A DNA stretch of 64,000 nucleotides from a virus (taxonomy: Duplodnaviria > Caudoviricetes). Within the stretch, counting starts at the first letter, position 1. Every line of letters starts with the position of its first letter. Positions 4,486 to 41,804 of this stretch are shown here, piece after piece. Below the pieces are notes generated by a model. That model was not told the origin of the DNA and did no database searches. It saw only the letters and a program-made list of their open reading frames with translations. The DNA is taken from the IMG/VR virus record IMGVR_UViG_3300027819_000006. One strand, written 5' to 3'. Both the position numbers and the translations under genes were made by a program.

Positions 4486-5553
4486 TTAAAAAATCCAATT
4501 GATTTCATCAAACTCATCATAAGCAGGAACCATGAATTGTCTCATCTTATTCACGATTACATCTTTAGCCAATGTTTTCTTCACTCTGTTACCATTTCTT
4601 TCCATGATCGTATTGTATCCTGTAGCAAAAACAATTGCTATTGTATTATAGATATTCTTAGGAATATTGCTCAAATACTTCCTCCTAAACTTTCTTGTCA
4701 TATTCGTCATATCTATAACAAAAGTCTTATTCTTGTTCAGCAATTCTTTAAATTTAGCACTGACAATTTTGTCTATTGCATCATGATCAACATTTCTGAA
4801 ACATTCATTGTAGTCTGTATCTACAGGAAATATGGAAGTAACCACATCGTCTCTGCTTAATACATTGCAATTTGCATAATTGGCCAATTGATATGTAGTC
4901 TTGCCACAATTGGGTGGTCCAACCATGAACACTACTTCTGCTTTCTTTTTGACATATTGCTTTGAATTGCTTGCTGTTTGAAAAAGTATGTCATTAAATA
5001 TAGCATTATTTAGAACTTCTTTGTCAAATACTTCATCTGTAATTCTGCCAAGATGATCACATAAGATGTGTCTAAAAACATAATCCATCAAATGTATCTG
5101 ATTTGTGAATCTTTCTGCTACTTTTTTGATAAACTTTGTAGTCATAACTTCTGGATTTAAAATTCCATAGAATTCTCCATGCAGAGATATGATATTGAGA
5201 ATCATCTTTTTGTCAGCAACAGATATTTCATCTCCTAATTTATTCAAGACATCAATAGCTAAATAGAAAGATAGACCAGCATGCCCAATGAAATTTTTCC
5301 TACCATTATTTTCATTGTATCCTGTAGCCATGGGCTTGCCAAGATCATGCAAAAGTATAGCAGATTGCAAAATATCATCTTTTGGATACATCTCTTTTGC
5401 ACAGTCATATACCATCATTGTATGCTTAAGAATATCTCCCTCCATGTGAAACGGAGATATCACAGTCTCAGAATGATGAGAGCAGTTGCTCATCAAATCT
5501 TTTAAACTAGAAAATTCTGTATTCAGAAGATCTAAAATTTTAGTGTTTAGCAT
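4486..5553 (-). CDS. HD-domain phosphoesterase fused to P-loop polynucleotide kinase (RNA end-healing enzyme)
   Basis: HMEGDILKHT, LLHDLGKP (HD) and CDHLGR in the N-terminal half; MVGPPNCGKTTY, LSRDD and VIDMTN...RRKY in the C-terminal half. Adjacent to the RNA ligase. Confidence 0.8.
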   Translation of the reverse strand: MLNTKILDLLNTEFSSLKDLMSNCSHHSETVISPFHMEGDILKHTMMVYDCAKEMYPKDDILQSAILLHDLGKPMATGYNENNGRKNFIGHAGLSFYLAIDVLNKLGDEISVADKKMILNIISLHGEFYGILNPEVMTTKFIKKVAERFTNQIHLMDYVFRHILCDHLGRITDEVFDKEVLNNAIFNDILFQTASNSKQYVKKKAEVVFMVGPPNCGKTTYQLANYANCNVLSRDDVVTSIFPVDTDYNECFRNVDHDAIDKIVSAKFKELLNKNKTFVIDMTNMTRKFRRKYLSNIPKNIYNTIAIVFATGYNTIMERNGNRVKKTLAKDVIVNKMRQFMVPAYDEFDEINWIF

Positions 5554-8285: not shown

Positions 8286-10120
8286 TATAGACCTTTCATG
8301 AGCTCTTTTAACAGAGCTGGGTGATCTTTAAGAATATCTTTTGCTTGATTGAACTTATCTTCACCTAATACTTTCAGATCATCCAAAGATCTTACTTTTA
8401 ACAAGTCAATGAAAGAATCATTTAGCAATTTCTTAAGTTTCAATACAGCATATATTTCTGACATAGTAACCATTTTTATTCTCCTCCTGACGAACCAGAG
8501 TCTGATGATCATGAGTCGCTTGAACTTCCGTTGTCGCTAGATGAAGAGCTATCAGAACTATAATCTGAAGAAGAGCTCTGATCTTGCTGAGATGAATCAT
8601 CTTTATCCCAAGAGCTAGATGCTCCTGCTCCAGAAAATTCTCCATCTTCCGGAACAATATTATCTACTGCTGCTGGCTGATCATTATTCTGTTGACTTGA
8701 AAGTAGTTCCGCCAGAACAATTGTGCTCAGCAATGAACTAGAATCATCTTCTTTAACTACTGTATTAGCTCTTTTGTCTTCTGATCTATTAAGATTATAC
8801 TGAGTTTTCAAAGCTTTAAATCTGTTCCTATCTACATCACTCAATTCAATATTAGGTGGTGTATCTACTGATCTGTCAACTTTTTTCTTCCAGAACTTTA
8901 AAAATTCAAACATGTTAATCTCCATTAAAAATTGTCAAGCACCTGTCTCCACCCATTTCAAATTTTCTACATGCTATAGGTCTGCTCTCATGAATTGTAC
9001 ATAGACCGTCTTTGAAAGCTATACAGTCACCATTTTTCTTCTTTTTCAGAATACATATTTTTAAAAAATGATTCTTCTCAATCATCTCTTCTGGAATGTT
9101 CTTATCTGCAAATGGAGCTAATTGGATGTATAATCTATTAGACTTGCAGCATTTGCCACCACACTGCTCACATAGAGTTTTCATTCAGATTCCATAGAAA
9201 CAAAAATATCATAACCCACTATAAAAAATAAAGCTGTTGTAGGAATCGCTGCAAATATAGGGTGAAAATTTTCACAAATAGCAGCAACTAAAAGACTTGT
9301 CAGTCCTACAACAATAATGTTATAATAAATCCTTTCACACATCTGAATACTCCTTTCTCGATTTTTCTGCTAGTTCACATATCATTTGTTCTACATATTG
9401 AGAATATGACTTGTTTACTATAACAATAGCTTTTCTCAATCCTTTTATTTCATCATAAGAAGCAGTTAGACCAAGTATCACTTCTCTATTTATATTGTCG
9501 ATGATCATTTGAACTAATGTATCTTCTTGGCACATAGAAATTATTCCTCCACTGTAATTTCTGAATATTTAGAAGCTCCAATACAAACACCATAAATATA
9601 ACATAAAAGAATATCTTGCAGTGAAGGCTCTATATATTATTTCGATTTTTAAAAAGAAACATATTTTTTGTTAATTCTATCAAGAAATGTATTTGCTTCT
9701 TCTAAAAATGTTATTGCTCTGCTAGCATTCGAAAAATAATAATTATGATCATAGAAGTCATCTTGATTTTTTGGAGTATTTTCTTTGTTTATGCTATTGA
9801 TAATGTTTTTTATGTTATCAATATGGCTGATAATCTGATCTTCACTTAGCATTGTAGTATAACCTTTAAAGTTTAAATACTTTTGTAATTTTAATTAGAT
9901 CAATGTCTCCACCTACTCCCCAAGTTTCCCATCCTTCGAGAGTGGTAGCTTTTTCATAAACATTCATATATGTGCCCTCAAAATACCCGAGAGTTGGCTG
10001 ATGCTGTGATCCACTGAAATCACAATTAGAATCTTCACCTTTTACAATCCAAGTTCCATAAATATGAGGCTGATACTTATGTATATGAACAATCTTTCCA
10101 TCTATAAATTTACGTTCCAT
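8285..10120 (-). other. Small hypothetical ORFs (8285-8512, 8509-8925, 9335-9535, 9649-9852, 9866-10120)
   Basis: Contiguous minus-strand ORFs. 8509..8925 has a GEFSGAGASSSW motif and an acidic Ser-rich tail. Confidence 0.6.
8915..9184 (-). CDS. YkgJ/FliB-like Cys-cluster (Fe-S or Zn) protein
   Basis: CEQCGGKCC...CIAFKDGLCTIHESRPIACRKF. Confidence 0.8.
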   Translation of the reverse strand: MKTLCEQCGGKCCKSNRLYIQLAPFADKNIPEEMIEKNHFLKICILKKKKNGDCIAFKDGLCTIHESRPIACRKFEMGGDRCLTIFNGD

Positions 10121-27888: not shown

Positions 27889-30800
27889 TTATAATTTAAT
27901 TTCTGTTGATGCTGCTAAAATTTGTTTCACTGCCATTGGACCATCAGTACCCTCATATTCATCTACAGACTTACTACCATCAGCATTCTCAGCATTTGCA
28001 AAGTCTTTCAAACCCTCAATAATATTTTTAGTGAATCTATCATGTTGCATTACATCAGTGATATAGCGGTCAAATACATCAGTCTTCTTTCTATTCTTAA
28101 TTATATCTCTTGCTTTTGCTCTTTTTCTAGATATTATTTCTGAGTTAGAAGTTTTTGCTTTTGACAATCCTACATTAGATTCTTTCTTTTTGCCTACAGA
28201 TCTAACACCTGGAGTTCCTTTTGTACCAGCAGGATCAGCAACTTTCATTGGATTCTTGTCTGTATCTGTGAATGTTTCTCCGTCCTTCTTTTTAGGCTTG
28301 CCTCTAGTAGATTCTTTGTCAGAATCTTCATCTTCAGTAGGTTTTTCTTTATTTTCATCTGAAAAATCTGGCATGTCTGAATCTGCAGATTCTCCATCTT
28401 TCCCTTCAGCACCAGAATCATCAGCAGGTTCTTCTGTCTGCTCTTCTTCTTCTAGTTTGCCATTCTGTTCAATCTGTCCAAGCTCCCATTTCTTCTTAGC
28501 GTCAAGTCTTAACTGCTCATTGATCTCTTCGATTTCATCATCTGTTAGACCAAGTACATGTTTCTGTGTATAAGGTTCGGAAACAAGATGAGAATCACCC
28601 ATTCTAGTAGATATATCAAATCTCTTCTCTACTAGTTCAAGATGCATAAGATCCATCACAGTAGAGGGGTTGGTCAGTTTAAGCTCGAAGTTATAAATAT
28701 CATCTTCATCAAAACCTTTTAAAAATAGATGGATTAGACCAATTTTAGATAGTTCAGATATAACAGCTTTTTGTACACGCTGAATTGTGCGAGCGAATCT
28801 AATGTCTTCTTGAGAATTTGCGATAAAAATTCCAGCATCTATAGCAAAATTATGGAATTCATTATCAACAGTTATACATCCAACATCTACAGTATAGGGC
28901 AATAACTTTACTATTTTAATTTTCCAACTAGATAATTCATATGTTTCAAAATTTATTGGATTAAAATCTATAAATCCTTTTACTGGTTCTGATAAATCAT
29001 AATCTTCTAATTTTATTTTTTTACCTTCAAAAGTAACTAACTCGTGATTTTTAGTACAATCTAAATATTTACCATTTTCGAAGTGAACTCTATATATAGT
29101 AGCATTTCTTTGAGTAATACCTGCCCATTTTATTAGGGATGAAATAATTCTATTTTTATTAGAATCATAAGATATAATTGTATCTTTTAATTCATTTTTA
29201 TTGAATAAGTCAATAATTTCTTTTAGGGTTTTAGTTTTACTATGAGCTAAAACAATTTTAGTATTTAAATCTATACATAGAGTCTGCTTGCCACCTAAAG
29301 ATTCCATATTTTGAAGATAAGCTTTAGGTACTCCGAGCGAAGTAAAGAGCTGGTTCTGGATAAACTCGACATCCGCAATCGCGTCTTGATTTGTCCCTCC
29401 TGGAAGTTGTTCTATAGAAGAACCTCTATCTCCACGAATTGGGATGTAGAAATTTTCTAGAATGGAATTCTTAATTATTATTCCGCTTTCATTTCCAGTA
29501 ATATGTTCATAACAATCTCTACTACCTATAGTTGCAAAATTTCCATATTTTTCTACTGTTATACAACCTACATCTTGTTTTTCTTCTAATAATTCAATTC
29601 TGGTTACTTTGTGATTTAATATTCTATTACCTCTTATAGTATCTATATTACAATCAGTTTTTATTTTAAGAAACTCCGGATATTTATGAGATAGAGTTTT
29701 TATTAATAATTTTATAGTTGTATTATTCAAATCAAATTTTCTTTCAATTTGTCGAAAAGTTATAATATCTTTTTTACTACAATAATTAACTATTTTATTT
29801 ATATCTATTTTATTTTTTAAGAGCCAAATAGATTTGTATTCTGTAAATCCAGAATATCCTAAAGTTTTAAATAGACTACTAAATCTTCCTCTACCCAATT
29901 TATCTTTAAAACCATTATTGAATGTAATATTTTTATCTATTAAATAATTTGTAAAATCTTTGTTTTCATTTATCTGTTTCATAGCTTCATGAGCTTTTAT
30001 ATTAACAGTAGAATTATCTAATATAGTATCAATAAATTTTATAAATATATTTTCATCTATAACTAATGACAGCAATTCACTTACATTTTTATAGTGTTTA
30101 TTTTTTTTATCTTTGTCATTCCAGTGATTAGTAAAATGATATAATTTTCCTTCTTTCCAACTTTTTGTCATTCTATTTTTAGAATTTTCTCTACCAATCT
30201 CTGATTTATTATATTCTAAAATTGCATCACCATGAAGTTTTTGATGATCGTGCCAACTCATTACTTGCAGATTGTCTGGATTATTGTTTCTTTTATTATT
30301 TTTGTCTTTTAGAAAATTTTTGTGATGAACAACTGCTCTTCTATTTTTTTCTACTTTGCAATAGTCATCTTGAAATAGTTTACCAGCAACAATTTTATGT
30401 GTATAATCAAATGCATTTGTATTTGGGTCATAAATCATTTCATATCCATTTGTAGATAAATTTTTATATAATGGCATCAAACTATCATTCTCTTTTAAGT
30501 GTTGAGCTTCAATATATTCTCCGATTCTTAATAAAAACTTATGATCTAAAGTTGTATCTATGTAAGTATTATTGTCTAAATGAATACGTATTATTTGCTC
30601 ATTTTTTCTTGTCATTTTAGCATTTATTACTCTTCCTGGAACTATAGCATTATTGTTTTCTCTATCTATCGAATAAACCCATTGATTTTTTTTGCCATTA
30701 TTTCTTTCATTTATTATTTCTTCTAAAGTAAGAGTTCTTCCATCTAATAATTGAACTAAGTTGTTTGCCAGTATACAAGTTGGATTGTATCTCATATCTA

Positions 30801-31617
30801 ACCCTCCAGTACTTTCTGTCACTAGCGGTGTCCTTAACATTTTGTCTCTTACATTGTTCATGTAAGAATCCACATCTTTTGGAGGAATATTTCCAACATC
30901 AACTTTAAACACTAATCTTTCTGGAGCTCTCGATATCCTATAAATTAACATTGCATCAATTGCAAGTATTAGCTGCTTCCAAGCTCTTCTACCAGAATCA
31001 AGAATTGATCTACCATAGGGCAAAAACCTGTCATCTCCAAGAAGTCTAAAATGAGCAATTTGATAAGGCTCGAATGCTTGGTTTGACTGAGTCATCCATC
31101 TAAATCTAACAGATGCAGGATCACCATCGTAGCCTTCTTCTCTCGACATTTCCAACAATGGTAAAGGAATGGCTCCTAAAACTCCATATTTATTTTCTAT
31201 ATCTAATAATGTAAAAACGTCTCCATATTTTACGAGGTTCCTGACCCACAACCATAAGTTAAAATCTATATCTAGTATGTCAAAGTATAATTCTTCTAAA
31301 GTCTTAACTATAGTTTCTTCTTCCGATCTAATATCTAGTATTTTACCTTCATAATTATATGTGGTCGAATCATCCGCATAAATATTACAAGCCGTACTAA
31401 TCTCTGGACTCTGATCCATCTGTTCATAGTCTCTTACTCTTTCAGTTCTTTCAGCTCCACCAGCCAATGCTTGCAAATACAGAGAACTAGCCGATTTTTG
31501 GAAACTGTCATACGGGCGTCTTCCACCCGCACGATTTGCAGGAGAGTCAGTTGGAATTTTTTCTGAAGCTCTCCTCCCGCGAAGTATGCGCTTGAGCAAG
31601 CTGATCTTATCGGCCAT
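27889..31617 (-). CDS. Portal protein (T4 gp20-like) with two inteins
   Basis: IAHFRL...PYGRSIL, DAMLIYRISRAPERLVFKVDVGNIP, ENFYIPIRG and EDIRFARTIQR. Confidence 0.93.
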   Translation of the reverse strand: MADKISLLKRILRGRRASEKIPTDSPANRAGGRRPYDSFQKSASSLYLQALAGGAERTERVRDYEQMDQSPEISTACNIYADDSTTYNYEGKILDIRSEEETIVKTLEELYFDILDIDFNLWLWVRNLVKYGDVFTLLDIENKYGVLGAIPLPLLEMSREEGYDGDPASVRFRWMTQSNQAFEPYQIAHFRLLGDDRFLPYGRSILDSGRRAWKQLILAIDAMLIYRISRAPERLVFKVDVGNIPPKDVDSYMNNVRDKMLRTPLVTESTGGLDMRYNPTCILANNLVQLLDGRTLTLEEIINERNNGKKNQWVYSIDRENNNAIVPGRVINAKMTRKNEQIIRIHLDNNTYIDTTLDHKFLLRIGEYIEAQHLKENDSLMPLYKNLSTNGYEMIYDPNTNAFDYTHKIVAGKLFQDDYCKVEKNRRAVVHHKNFLKDKNNKRNNNPDNLQVMSWHDHQKLHGDAILEYNKSEIGRENSKNRMTKSWKEGKLYHFTNHWNDKDKKNKHYKNVSELLSLVIDENIFIKFIDTILDNSTVNIKAHEAMKQINENKDFTNYLIDKNITFNNGFKDKLGRGRFSSLFKTLGYSGFTEYKSIWLLKNKIDINKIVNYCSKKDIITFRQIERKFDLNNTTIKLLIKTLSHKYPEFLKIKTDCNIDTIRGNRILNHKVTRIELLEEKQDVGCITVEKYGNFATIGSRDCYEHITGNESGIIIKNSILENFYIPIRGDRGSSIEQLPGGTNQDAIADVEFIQNQLFTSLGVPKAYLQNMESLGGKQTLCIDLNTKIVLAHSKTKTLKEIIDLFNKNELKDTIISYDSNKNRIISSLIKWAGITQRNATIYRVHFENGKYLDCTKNHELVTFEGKKIKLEDYDLSEPVKGFIDFNPINFETYELSSWKIKIVKLLPYTVDVGCITVDNEFHNFAIDAGIFIANSQEDIRFARTIQRVQKAVISELSKIGLIHLFLKGFDEDDIYNFELKLTNPSTVMDLMHLELVEKRFDISTRMGDSHLVSEPYTQKHVLGLTDDEIEEINEQLRLDAKKKWELGQIEQNGKLEEEEQTEEPADDSGAEGKDGESADSDMPDFSDENKEKPTEDEDSDKESTRGKPKKKDGETFTDTDKNPMKVADPAGTKGTPGVRSVGKKKESNVGLSKAKTSNSEIISRKRAKARDIIKNRKKTDVFDRYITDVMQHDRFTKNIIEGLKDFANAENADGSKSVDEYEGTDGPMAVKQILAASTEIKL
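28816..29277 (-). mobile_element. Intein 2, mini-intein (154 aa)
   Basis: KQTL|CIDLNTKI ... CTKNHEL ... HNFAIDAGIFIAN|SQED. Confidence 0.9.
29467..30777 (-). mobile_element. Intein 1 (437 aa) with an HNH endonuclease domain
   Basis: YNPT|CILANNLVQLLDG ... IIIKN|SILE; internal VVHHKN...NNNPDNLQVMSWHDHQKLH. Confidence 0.9.
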
Positions 31618-38640: not shown

Positions 38641-39284
38641 GTGTTTTCTCTATTTAAATCTATCATTAATTCTTCTTTTCTGATAATTTTTGTATCTTCT
38701 GAGAATACTAAAATTTCTTTCTGCTCTTCGTAAGCTATTTCTTCTTTGTGTATAGAATATTGATTTTGACCATACTGATAATATTTCCTCAAACAGCCAA
38801 TCACTTCAACAAATAGCTCTATTAATTCAGAATATGTTCTATTTTCTTTATGATTTTTTACTATATTTTCTAAAAAATCAGTTTTAGCTAATTGTTTCAA
38901 AATATTGTGCACAACTACTATATTTCCATTCATTTTAGCTAAATTTTTACAGATAATGAAACCATAGCTCTTATTGAAAGTTTTATTCAGCTGTTCAGGT
39001 TTTAATATGCTAAAAGAAACAGGCTGAAAGTTTAGATTATGAAAACCTATAGTATGTATATCTTCAATAAATTTAGCATATTCTTTTTCTATTAGATCGA
39101 ACCATCTGTAAACAATCAAATTTTTAGGAAGTTTTATACTAAATTTAGAGCTTGCAACAAGACTTTCATGTCTGAGTATATTTGATAAAGCTCGTCTTCT
39201 TTCTTCGCTGAAAGAATAGACATATTCCAATATTATGTATAGAGCATTTATATCATTGCTGTATAATATATCTTTCAGTTTCAA
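38637..39284 (-). CDS. Putative R-S-E clade ADP-ribosyltransferase
   Basis: IVYRW (R), PVSFS (SxS) and EEQKEILV (QxE) in the expected order; TTG start. Confidence 0.5.
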   Translation of the reverse strand: MKLKDILYSNDINALYIILEYVYSFSEERRRALSNILRHESLVASSKFSIKLPKNLIVYRWFDLIEKEYAKFIEDIHTIGFHNLNFQPVSFSILKPEQLNKTFNKSYGFIICKNLAKMNGNIVVVHNILKQLAKTDFLENIVKNHKENRTYSELIELFVEVIGCLRKYYQYGQNQYSIHKEEIAYEEQKEILVFSEDTKIIRKEELMIDLNRENT

Positions 39285-39490
39285 AATTTATCTCTATTTA
39301 AACATTCCATTACATATTCAAAAGCTTTTTCTAGTTCTTTAGCAGCAACTTCAGGTTTAGCATTTATCTTTTTAGCTAATTTGAAACAAGGGTATGAAAA
39401 ATCCCCAAATTTATTCCTTAATTTAGGATCATTTTCTTTTATATCATTCAAAACACTATTAAAATCTTCTTCTATAATATAACTAATTAT
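39281..39490 (-). CDS. Minigene or remnant resembling the arginyl-tRNA synthetase N-terminal domain
   Basis: Hand translation: ...PKLRNKFGDFSYPCFKLAKKINAKPEVAAKELEKAF...*. No ATG; ATA, ATT and TTG are candidate starts. Confidence 0.6.
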   Translation of the reverse strand: MISYIIEEDFNSVLNDIKENDPKLRNKFGDFSYPCFKLAKKINAKPEVAAKELEKAFEYVMECLNRDKF

Positions 39491-39537
39491 AGTTGTTCTA
39501 TAAATATAATGGAGCTGATAAAAATTGCATCTATTAT

Positions 39538-39882
39538 TGGTGGACCTGGAGAATATCGAAATTCTCGTGTAGTCTATGCTACATAAAAATTGTATTGTAC
39601 ATGCTTTTGCAAATTCTAATTTTTCATTCTGTTATAAAGAATTAGCAAAGTTTATAACAGAATTATTCTTTCTATTTATTAAAAGAAGTGTTCTTATCAG
39701 ATATGAATGATGCTATTCTATTTCCTATCTGCAAAATTTAGATAGCATAGCTGTTTAGCTCTTAAGCAGCTAGTTTGTATTGATTTTTGTCAATTACTAT
39801 TTTGCTGTAAGTTTAAAGAGTTTATAGCAAACTCTGCATGCAATTCTTACTTTACATACCTATCGATTCCAATTTCAGGCCC
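39538..39882 (-). ncRNA. ssrA: tmRNA (complete, 345 nt), tag (A)DKNQYKLAA
   Basis: 5' GGGCCTG pairs with 3' CAGGTCC-ACCA including G3.U70; T-arm GAGAA-TTTCGAT-ATTCTC; tag ORF 39762-39791. Confidence 0.93.
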
Positions 39883-39891
39883 AAAATCTTT

Positions 39892-40201
39892 CCTACTACA
39901 TGCTTTTTGTAGAATTCTACATTTCAACAATATTTTGAATCCCTACAAAGTATAATATTATTGAATTAGATTGATTTCATTTGCATCTATCTAACCAATC
40001 AATGCAAATTATCTCATTTAAATGATATCTCAGTAAAATCTATGAGATAAGACTTTATAGAGACAAGCAGTTTAATCTCCTAAGCTGCTAGTTTGTAGCT
40101 TTGATTGTCATTTAAGACTTTAATCAGCTTTTAACGAAGCCTCTGATTAACTTCGGCATGCAATCATACTAATTATTATCCAGTCGATTATAATCGCCCC
40201 C
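39892..40201 (-). ncRNA. ssrA: Second, 3'-truncated tmRNA, tag (A)DNQSYKLAA
   Basis: 5' GGGGGCGATTATAATCGAC, GCATGC helix and tag ORF 40080-40109; no complementary acceptor strand or CCA before the next tmRNA begins. Confidence 0.8.
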
Positions 40202-40253
40202 GTTATTTTTGATTTGTGTTGATATTTACTTCTGATAGCTTCAAGTTTGTTCT

Positions 40254-41804
40254 CTAAATAAGTACAGTATTTCCATTTGAGTTCAGAAATGTTGTAGTCT
40301 TTTCTGGTCCTTTTGATTCTAATCTTACAGGATTACTCCACAATATAAATATACTGTTGAGAACCTCTTTAGTATCAGCTATATCTAAAGTAATATCTTT
40401 ATCTGTATTATGTTTTAGCAACAGAGTTCCATTTCTACCATAGTTCATATCTACTACTTCTAGATTCGGCCTACCATGATTTGTTAACATGAATAATAGT
40501 TTTTGTTTCACATCTTTGAATTCTTTTGAAGATATTTGATATGTTATACCTTTTGGATCACCTTCTGCAGGTTCAGCTTTTGATTTATCTATTGTAAAAA
40601 GTTTCAGCTGAACACAAAGTTCTCTTGTAAAAAATTCATCTATGAACTCAACATCATTATAATATTTTCTAACTTCAAATATCTTTTCATGTCCAATATT
40701 CAGCTTCTTGTCCCAGTTCTTTTTTGTCTTGTAATCATCACATTCTTCCCATTCTCTGCCGAACTGTCCTTTATTCCATCTTTCTTCAATATCATTCCAT
40801 ATTTCTAGACCTAGTTTGTATGGATTCAAAGATCTAGATGATCCCATGGTGGCAGCATGATGCTCAGCATAATCTATAATTTCTGAATCGTCAAGAATTC
40901 CTCTTTTTGTAAGAATATGACTATGCCAATAACTTGCCCATCCCTCATTCATAATTTTCGTCATTCCTTGTGGAGCAAAGTAATATGCCTCTTCTCTGAT
41001 CATAGACATAATATTTCTCTGCCACTGTTTCATCGGAGCATGTTCAATCAGAAATAGAAGGAGATCTTTATAGGGTTTCTTAAGACTTTTTGCTTCCTCT
41101 TCTTCAAGTTCTTTCTTCTTTTCTTTTTTAAGTTTTTCAATTTCATCATCAGGATTAACAAATTTGTCCATATAAAATTTATCTGCAGAAACTTTAATTC
41201 TGTCTATATTCTGAGATTCTAAATCTATGTTCTTGTCTTCTTGTTCTTCTGGTGCTTTACTCTTTGCCATTAATATTTCATGTCTATCAATGTGTTGTTC
41301 TAAACTTGAGCAGATATCAATGAAATCTTCTACTTCTTTTTCTCCATATAGATCTATATATTGACTTACAATCTTAGCATGATTGCTGAATTGATTGATC
41401 ATTTTTCTATCTGTATTGGAAAACCAGATATTGTTTTTAAAGAAATCAGCATGTCCATAGACATGAGCCATAACTAATTTCTGATCTACTAATGTATTAT
41501 TTGTCATTAGATATGCATATACAGGATCTGTATTTACAACCATCTCTGATATTTTAGATAGACCGTAAAAATATTCTTTGTACATATGAGAATATGATTG
41601 TCCAAATTCCCAGTGAGAATATCTTTCCATGAAACCTGTTCTTGCAGCTATCTGATAAAGATCATCTGGTGAAACCATTTCAAAGACAGTTTTAAAAAAA
41701 TCAAGCTTTTCTTCTATAGCGATATCTTCTATTTTATATTTCCATTCTTTAAGATAATAAGGAAATTTTATTACTTGATCAAATTTATTATATGATTTTT
41801 CCAT
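40254..41804 (-). CDS. spoVR: SpoVR/YcgB family protein
   Basis: RYSHWEFG, SKISEMVVNTDP, MAHVYGHADFFKNN, TKIMNEGWASYWH and LNPYKLG. Confidence 0.95.
   Translation of the reverse strand: MEKSYNKFDQVIKFPYYLKEWKYKIEDIAIEEKLDFFKTVFEMVSPDDLYQIAARTGFMERYSHWEFGQSYSHMYKEYFYGLSKISEMVVNTDPVYAYLMTNNTLVDQKLVMAHVYGHADFFKNNIWFSNTDRKMINQFSNHAKIVSQYIDLYGEKEVEDFIDICSSLEQHIDRHEILMAKSKAPEEQEDKNIDLESQNIDRIKVSADKFYMDKFVNPDDEIEKLKKEKKKELEEEEAKSLKKPYKDLLLFLIEHAPMKQWQRNIMSMIREEAYYFAPQGMTKIMNEGWASYWHSHILTKRGILDDSEIIDYAEHHAATMGSSRSLNPYKLGLEIWNDIEERWNKGQFGREWEECDDYKTKKNWDKKLNIGHEKIFEVRKYYNDVEFIDEFFTRELCVQLKLFTIDKSKAEPAEGDPKGITYQISSKEFKDVKQKLLFMLTNHGRPNLEVVDMNYGRNGTLLLKHNTDKDITLDIADTKEVLNSIFILWSNPVRLESKGPEKTTTFLNSNGNTVLI

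Follow-up and report, generated by a model that had tools for sequence, protein, structure and literature searches.

Why should a phage carry a transfer-messenger RNA (tmRNA) gene that lacks its 3' end directly in front of a second one that is complete? The question is raised by a tandem locus in IMG/VR record IMGVR_UViG_3300027819_000006, where a stretch of 64 kb (the window) from a phage genome of 272 kb was analyzed. The source is a large T4-like or 'huge' phage from a groundwater metagenome, and among the genes of the window are those for the large terminase and the portal, a Thg1-like gene, and a pair resembling CobS and CobT. The minus strand carries every gene of the window and also both tmRNA copies, which are read in the order copy 1, copy 2, with the truncated copy 1 upstream and 9 nt between them. 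The original prediction had considered copy 1 a possible decaying duplicate. We conclude, with a probability of roughly 0.6, that copy 1 is what remains of a second tmRNA allele at a gene-swap hotspot: it lost its 3' end recently, is non-chargeable, and probably forms part of the precursor of copy 2.

Anatomy of the two tmRNA copies

The two copies were examined with the Rfam tmRNA model (RF00023; gathering score, 47 bits); only copy 2 scored above the threshold, and copy 1 was added by a relaxed search over positions 39300-40500. It gave a local match at 40163-39892 with 42.0 bits (E 4.1e-15 in this 1.2-kb search), which is under the gathering score and extends from model position 43 to 322; copy 1 is a genuine tmRNA homolog. 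From its 5' end at 40201, where GGGGGCGAUUAUAAUCGAC comprises the 5' acceptor strand and the D-loop analog, the parts follow in the order P2 5' strand, P2b/c, an H-type pseudoknot (PK1), the tag reading frame, the tag-stop hairpin, PK2 to PK4, and the P2b/c 3' strand. The tmRNA-derived sequence terminates at GCAUGUAGUAGG (39892), inside P2 and at position 322 of the 374 in the model, and the P2a 3' strand, the T-arm (P12), the 3' acceptor strand, and CCA are absent. This is the anatomy that the original prediction had described (a GGGGGCG acceptor strand, a D-loop, an intact tag DNQSYKLAA*, and neither T-arm nor CCA), and both the reading of the sequence and the extent of the Rfam match bear it out.

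No partner strand of the form CGCC(U/C)CC for GGGGGCG was present on the minus strand of the window, and a looser scan, in which G-U pairs and one mismatch were allowed, returned no site in the window with a T-arm-like stem and CCA. Compared with a one-piece tmRNA, copy 1 has PK1, the resume context, an LAA-stop tag, the tag hairpin, and PK2 to PK4, and lacks both the acceptor stem with G3-U70 and (A)CCA and the T-arm/P2a. With these parts missing, it can be predicted with assurance that copy 1 forms no tRNA-like domain and that it neither takes alanine, binds EF-Tu, nor performs trans-translation; cleavage by RNase P at its own 5' end would likewise be precluded.

Copy 2 matched the same model over its full length and carries a GGGCCUG/CAGGUCC acceptor stem with a G3-U pair, a T-arm one nucleotide longer than the standard 17, an encoded ACCA, and a tag with its resume codon. 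The G3-U pair is the requirement of alanyl-tRNA synthetase. PK1, PK2, and PK4 are present, and PK3 is reduced. The full-length score, the G3-U acceptor stem, the T-arm, CCA, and the tag are those of a one-piece tmRNA, in agreement with the earlier reading of a complete gene with the tag DKNQYKLAA*, and copy 2 appears to be the working gene, with every part that a tmRNA needs.

ARAGORN and covariance models had been named beforehand as ways of checking the locus, and the two diverged: ARAGORN made no tmRNA or tRNA call in the window and missed copy 2 as well as copy 1 because these RNAs are AT-rich and divergent, whereas RF00023 matched both copies. This calls for caution in annotation, as ARAGORN finds neither copy and Rfam at its gathering score only one.

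Apart from the truncation, no decay was visible in copy 1. Its helices are fully paired (P2b/c, 9/9; PK1, 6/6 and 8/8; tag hairpin, 5/5; total, 28/28), the PK2, PK3, and PK4 regions fold as long hairpins, and in the minimum free energy (MFE) fold P2 is closed and all hairpins are formed (z -2.86). Over the same core (model positions ~43-322), copy 1 scored 42.0 bits, compared with 22.7 bits for the working copy 2. The state of the sequence thus contradicts the notion of a copy in decay; either the truncation is young, or the RNA of copy 1 is under selection.

Table 1 Features of the tandem tmRNA locus and spacing of the tmRNA gene in related phages.
Feature	Position	Strand	Basis or remark
SpoVR, last gene of the PrkA-DUF444(YeaH)-SpoVR operon	40254..41804	-	Homologs carry PF04293/PF24755
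Window-specific insert relative to L011 (~48-nt leader plus copy 1, 358 nt)	39892..40249	-	Homology blocks
Copy 1, 3'-truncated tmRNA gene	39892..40201	-	Rfam local match, sequence reading, helix pairing, MFE fold
Copy 1, 5' acceptor strand GGGGGCG, partnerless	40195..40201	-	CGCCYCC absent from the minus strand of the window
Copy 1, tag frame DNQSYKLAA*, GAC resume codon to TAG stop	40080..40109	-	Translation; aligns with the tag of the Rfam consensus
Spacer AAAGAUUUU	39883..39891	-	9 nt; homologous to the bases just upstream of the L011 tmRNA
Copy 2, complete tmRNA	39538..39882	-	RF00023, 56.7 bits, model 1-374, above the gathering score
Copy 2, tag DKNQYKLAA*, GAC resume codon	39791-39762	-	Translation
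Open frame with only the N-terminal domain of arginyl-tRNA synthetase, no ATG	39281..39490	-	Pfam PF03485, 26.3 bits (cut-off 21.5), profile 5-65 of 85
tmRNA of L025			3 nt from SpoVR
tmRNA of L014			13 nt from SpoVR; acceptor GGGCCUG
tmRNA of L022			~190 nt from SpoVR
tmRNA of LR756511			~2 kb from SpoVR; acceptor GGGGGCG
tmRNA of L020			~2.4 kb from SpoVR
tmRNA of L011, nearest relative			~3 kb from SpoVR

The tandem in other assemblies and in related phages

The tandem recurred unchanged in two further contigs. One, from Logan, is 78 kb long, derives from metagenome runs of groundwater, and has an even depth of ~18x; the other, from JGI (L070, sample 3300001380), is 12.7 kb long, came from another pipeline, and was identical at 5397 of 5397 bases. 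One further groundwater run contained only short identical pieces of the same phage, and no RNA library was listed among the sequencing runs with the locus. The arrangement first predicted, an acceptor-less copy ahead of a complete one, stands in three assemblies, and the predicted coordinates and tags were confirmed. The gap of about 10 nt measured 9 nt, and the strong divergence of the two copies was expressed in an identity of ~59-61% across ~300 nt.

Related phages were recovered with SpoVR as the anchor and searched for second tmRNA copies at E-value cut-offs of 0.1 to 1. In this phage group, SpoVR is the conserved upstream neighbor of the tmRNA gene (Table 1). L025, L014, L022, LR756511, L020, and L011 have one tmRNA each, and no partial second copy was found in any of them. 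Whole-genome scans of LR756504 and LR756508 gave one full tmRNA each and no partial copy, and those of LR756502 and LR745206 gave nothing over the tmRNA cut-off, only short low-scoring tRNA-sized matches. As for the conservation of copy 1, a check put forward with the original prediction, neither the nearest relative nor any other phage examined has it, and none of these phages is closer than ~80% nucleotide identity.

The nearest relative, L011, has a SpoVR that is 81% identical at the protein level, and its flanking genes are ~80% identical at the nucleotide level. Homology with the window extends through PrkA, DUF444, and SpoVR, breaks at the SpoVR stop codon, and resumes 9-10 nt before copy 2; the resumed block in blastn pairs window positions 39530-39891 with L011 positions 9534-9895 and spans copy 2. 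As the spacer between the copies is homologous to the bases just upstream of the L011 tmRNA, it represents the right-hand junction of the window-specific insert. No trace of copy 1 was found in the corresponding slot of L011, and copy 1 is lineage-specific. Copy 2 is 87% identical to the L011 tmRNA, lies within a block whose ~80% identity to L011 equals that of SpoVR, DUF444, and PrkA, and has its GGGCCUG acceptor in common with the tmRNA of L014; for these reasons it is the vertically inherited gene.

In L011, the slot occupied by copy 1 in the window (L011 6541-9533) holds 3 kb with five accessory genes, among them a PFIN-like gene (plasmid fertility inhibition) and a zeta-toxin/AAA_33-like gene (Pfam assignments). 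The zeta-toxin/AAA_33-like kinase gene ends 15 nt short of the tmRNA.

Neither flank of copy 2 is the same in the window as in L011. The open frame that corresponds to the N-terminal domain of arginyl-tRNA synthetase (ArgRS) follows copy 2 directly and is absent from L011; the JGI gene caller reported it as a 56-aa gene (L070 1583-1753). The N-terminal domain of ArgRS is tRNA-binding, and the frame could be a relic or gene fragment, or a mini-gene. The variability of both flanks of copy 2, together with the ArgRS fragment, marks the slot of copy 1 as a site of DNA exchange, a swap hotspot that also holds another translation-gene fragment.

The tmRNAs of this phage group are unusually divergent. 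The T-loop of the L011 tmRNA (9860-9883) has UGCAAU in a 16-nt arm and no usual UUCRA motif, and the gene scores 45 bits, just below the Rfam cut-off. In two relatives, tmRNA mini-genes of 112-137 nt were observed beside the full tmRNA, at LR756511.1 2250-2386 (L003 1501-1637) and LR756508.1 414804-414915 (L062 1501-1612). They score 50 and 58 bits, over the Rfam tmRNA cut-off, and ARAGORN misses both. Each has a complete acceptor stem (GGGCCAG/CUGGUCC and GGGGGCG/CGCCUCC, respectively), a T-arm, and almost no mRNA-like part, in the manner of the mini-tmRNA of mycobacteriophage DS6A.

Two observations concern other genes. In L014, a marine relative, PrkA is closely preceded by a tRNA of 92 nt whose variable arm and acceptor stem are both long (L014 2770-2861); it scores 45.5 bits on the tRNA-Sec model, yet has a GCU (Ser-type) anticodon. 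In the window, the portal profile matches four distinct segments of the portal gene (27889-31617, minus strand; 1242 aa), and residues 388-475 match a profile of HNH endonucleases, a pattern that suggests an intein or an inserted nuclease domain.

Origin of copy 1

Copy 1 is evidently not a recent duplicate of copy 2, since the two are only ~60% identical and their acceptor stems differ (GGGGGCG vs GGGCCUG). Of the 'decaying duplicate' that had been envisaged, the truncated, non-chargeable copy remains; the recent duplication does not, given ~60% identity between the copies as against 87% between copy 2 and its ortholog in L011, which has no copy 1. At 30.1%, the G+C content of copy 1 nearly equals the 29.9% of copy 2 and the 31% of the phage, which points to long residence in AT-rich phage genomes, or a phage-adapted donor, and not to recent acquisition of a host gene.

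When copy 1 was compared with eight phage tmRNAs, copy 2 matched best (E 3e-10), and the next collinear match was the tmRNA of L020 (E 0.04). Of the sites that distinguish copy 2 from the L011 tmRNA, 31 have the copy 2 state in copy 1 and 10 the L011 state; polarization with outgroups assigned 31 derived sites to L011 and 21 to copy 2, so that the 31:10 skew largely results from faster change in L011. PK1 is present in both copies and absent from the tmRNAs of L014, L022, and L025. The tag of copy 2 ends in YKLAA, compared with YALAA or YSLAA in the relatives, and the tag hairpins of the two copies are separated by a compensatory A-U to U-A swap.

Searches with blastn among GenBank phages returned no relative of either copy. 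Exact-pattern scans of IMG/VR with the 5' end of copy 1, PK1 of copy 1, a tag-anchored pattern, and PK1 of copy 2 had a sole match, L010, which was rejected because the 19-mer had matched by chance within a tail gene region that lacks a tmRNA; a search of IMG/VR for SpoVR-related loci returned none. Two scans of JGI metagenomes were also negative, a weak blank from a collection that missed this locus's own JGI contig: an exact 25-mer of copy 2 went unmatched although L070 carries the locus at 100%, and blanks in this collection are thus non-exhaustive. The Logan k-mer index returned only the same phage, and a search for homologs of the downstream 215-aa gene, taken as a route to a donor locus, returned only the gene itself.

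A scan of GTDB for YKLAA-tagged tmRNAs yielded 28 loci with 40-65% G+C (many from Pseudomonas, Planctomycetota, and Binatia), none of which resembled copy 1 beyond the searched tag, and a host origin of copy 1 found no support there. In a gammaproteobacterial metagenome-assembled genome, FRAM18_bin228, the YKLAA tmRNA pattern occurred on two contigs (L032 and L033), each time with a 20-nt tag end identical to that of copy 1. The double match may reflect two ssrA copies or redundancy of the bin.

Proposed history and expression of the locus

According to the explanation we favor, copy 1 would have its source in a different AT-rich phage within this broad group or in an old paralog, and illegitimate recombination or the turnover of cassettes would have stranded it at the variable SpoVR/tmRNA junction. 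If, for example, two phages that differed in the tmRNA allele behind SpoVR had infected the same cell and undergone an illegitimate crossover, this would account for the place of copy 1 after SpoVR, its AT-richness, its intact body, and its clean 3' break. The truncation was probably recent on an evolutionary scale because the rest of copy 1 is undegraded.

In the relatives, the tmRNA begins 3-15 nt past the stop codon of the preceding gene. These gaps and the 9-nt spacing of the tandem make a read-through precursor probable, and the tmRNAs of the group, copy 2 included, are probably released from such precursors by RNase P trimming. Transcribed either ahead of copy 2 as a leader or behind SpoVR as a 3' tail of its message, copy 1 would be freed by a cut of RNase P at G39882. 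Co-transcription of the two copies is likely, judging from their arrangement; in the predicted fold of the 664-nt co-transcript, the copies form independent domains with no cross-pairing, and the acceptor stem of copy 2 is formed. A scan for promoters and terminators gave no signal above chance.

Several points count against a recently truncated foreign remnant. The donor lineage was not found in the databases searched, so the foreign allele is something that we infer. Four adjacent changes in the tag of copy 2 (GCCTTA to AAACTA; the Lys codon and a synonymous Leu) equal the sequence of copy 1 exactly, which indicates either a short gene-conversion tract from copy 1 to copy 2 or common selection on both tags. 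Copy 1 is also remarkably intact for a relic, with 28/28 pairs, the whole tag frame and resume context, and a core that scores 42.0 bits against 22.7 bits for copy 2; were it older than the split from L011 (~20% nucleotide divergence), this preservation would imply selection.

Alternative explanations

The main rival holds that copy 1 is a maintained, non-chargeable tmRNA-derived RNA, freed from the copy 2 precursor by RNase P and serving as a decoy or sponge (e.g., for S1 or RNase R) or as a stabilizing leader. The full retention of helices, tag frame, and resume context speaks for it, as do a core closer to consensus than that of copy 2 and a fold z of -2.86. It is also favored by the 9-nt spacing, which would promote co-transcription, by the unusual YKLAA ending common to both tags and derived in copy 2, and by a mirror-image precedent in mycobacteriophage DS6A (PMC4131195). 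We nevertheless regard it as unlikely: copy 1 is not conserved, being absent from L011 and the other relatives examined, the missing part is the very platform that SmpB and EF-Tu bind (T-arm and acceptor), the relatives make tmRNA without such a leader, and the promoter signal does not exceed chance. Less likely still is a role for which copy 1 has been selected as a tmRNA-derived RNA without a tRNA-like domain, tuning ribosome rescue or tag-dependent proteolysis during infection; such an RNA could soak up factors of the pseudoknots or tag region, or feed sequence to the tag of copy 2 via gene conversion. The decoy, the second mRNA-like domain, and the two-tag co-transcript raised in the original prediction are neither favored nor contradicted by the sequence comparison.

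That copy 1 is an ancient in-place paralog seems improbable; its gene would have arisen by tandem duplication in an ancestor shared with L011, disappeared from L011, and lost its 3' end in the present lineage. Such a history would fit copy 2 being its best match among the eight phage tmRNAs (E 3e-10, with L020 at E 0.04), the PK1 that both copies have kept and that L014, L022, and L025 lack, and the 31:10 agreement with copy 2 over L011. However, the acceptor stems differ and identity is only ~60%, the 31:10 skew is mostly the product of faster change in L011 (31 vs 21 derived sites), no relative has two copies, and long survival without decay would need selection.

It is more doubtful again that copy 1 is the coding piece of a split tmRNA, whose GGGGGCG strand would pair in trans with a separate piece, bearing the T-arm and a CGCCUCCACCA acceptor, elsewhere in the 272-kb genome. 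Copy 1 does keep a 5' acceptor strand with G3, and related huge phages have mini-genes for the tRNA-like domain, the one at LR756508 414804-414915 with the same GGGGGCG/CGCCUCC stem. On the other hand, no acceptor piece was found upstream or elsewhere in the window, which covers 64 of the 272 kb, nor in the 3' end of SpoVR or the spacer, and the model of permuted tmRNAs (RF04321) scored only 13.3 bits (E 3.7) against a gathering score of 47. The original prediction had likewise set aside a permuted two-piece tmRNA for want of an upstream acceptor piece, and these results uphold that view. With both P2b/c strands inside copy 1 and no 3' strand of P2a, a 7-bp acceptor stem alone would join the pieces, unlike in known two-piece tmRNAs.

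Two further pairings were rejected. In a giant tmRNA with two tags, made of the 5' strand of copy 1 and the 3' strand of copy 2, 4 of 7 acceptor positions would pair, compared with 7 of 7 with copy 2's own 5' strand, and a 3' fragment of copy 1 moved downstream by a cassette was not present in the window. An assembly chimera has a negligible chance of explaining the tandem: the window was assembled from a metagenome, possibly from the very two runs that contain its full sequence, but the presence of the tandem in the Logan contig and in a JGI contig of another pipeline speaks against a chimera, and ~60% identity between the copies is too low for a repeat-induced misjoin.

Comparison with known systems

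tmRNA pseudogenes that lack one end are known in bacteria, and copy 1 fits this class: it has clear homology to tmRNA, one terminus is gone, no tRNA-like domain is possible, and the second ssrA-like sequence stands beside an intact ssrA in the same genome. It differs from the bacterial cases in that it is located in a phage, lies 9 nt from the intact gene, belongs to another allele lineage (~60%), and is undecayed save for the truncation.

Two-piece permuted tmRNAs, found in Alphaproteobacteria, Cyanobacteria, and some aquatic myophages (RF04321), resemble copy 1 in having a coding piece that starts with the 5' acceptor strand and bears the tag; they differ from it in the acceptor piece that precedes the coding piece, in scoring by RF04321 (13.3 bits for copy 1 vs the threshold of 47), and in the P2b/c strands, both of which lie inside copy 1.

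Insertion of integrase-mediated islands leaves short, near-identical 3' fragments of tmRNA or tRNA genes beyond the integrase-bearing island (Williams, 2002, PMC100330; PMC9897764). Like such att-type fragments, copy 1 preserves part of a tRNA-type gene next to an entire one where DNA has been inserted repeatedly. In contrast, it comprises the 5' 85% of the gene, is divergent (~60%), and stands directly upstream at a distance of 9 nt. An integration-derived att fragment was rejected as the source of copy 1, which is a 5' and not a 3' piece, is ~60% identical, and has no island and no integrase among the neighboring genes.

One-piece tmRNAs are encoded by phages such as the mycobacteriophage Bxz1 group, Bacillus phage G, and huge phages (e.g., LR756511). 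Copy 2 belongs with them and lies downstream of SpoVR, as in related uncultured phages; these phages have a single complete gene, however, and none has a truncated companion. Mycobacteriophage DS6A encodes little beyond a tRNA-like domain, and such a molecule inhibits tmRNA (PMC4131195). DS6A thus provides a phage gene with only part of a tmRNA and a precedent for a partial tmRNA as inhibitor or decoy. The parts retained are reversed: the tRNA-like domain survives in DS6A without the mRNA-like part, whereas copy 1 lacks the platform for SmpB. No earlier tmRNA derivative would combine an mRNA-like and pseudoknot body with the loss of the tRNA-like domain if copy 1 proved to be maintained, and this would suggest that phages tune trans-translation with both kinds of partial tmRNA.

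Relative to these systems, the locus is new in its phage setting, in the abutment of two different alleles, and in a truncated copy that has not decayed. On the relic reading, which we favor, it is a natural snapshot of the turnover of a phage tmRNA locus, with two alleles side by side at a cassette hotspot, a second translation-gene fragment adjoining the tandem, and tag codons possibly transferred between the copies.

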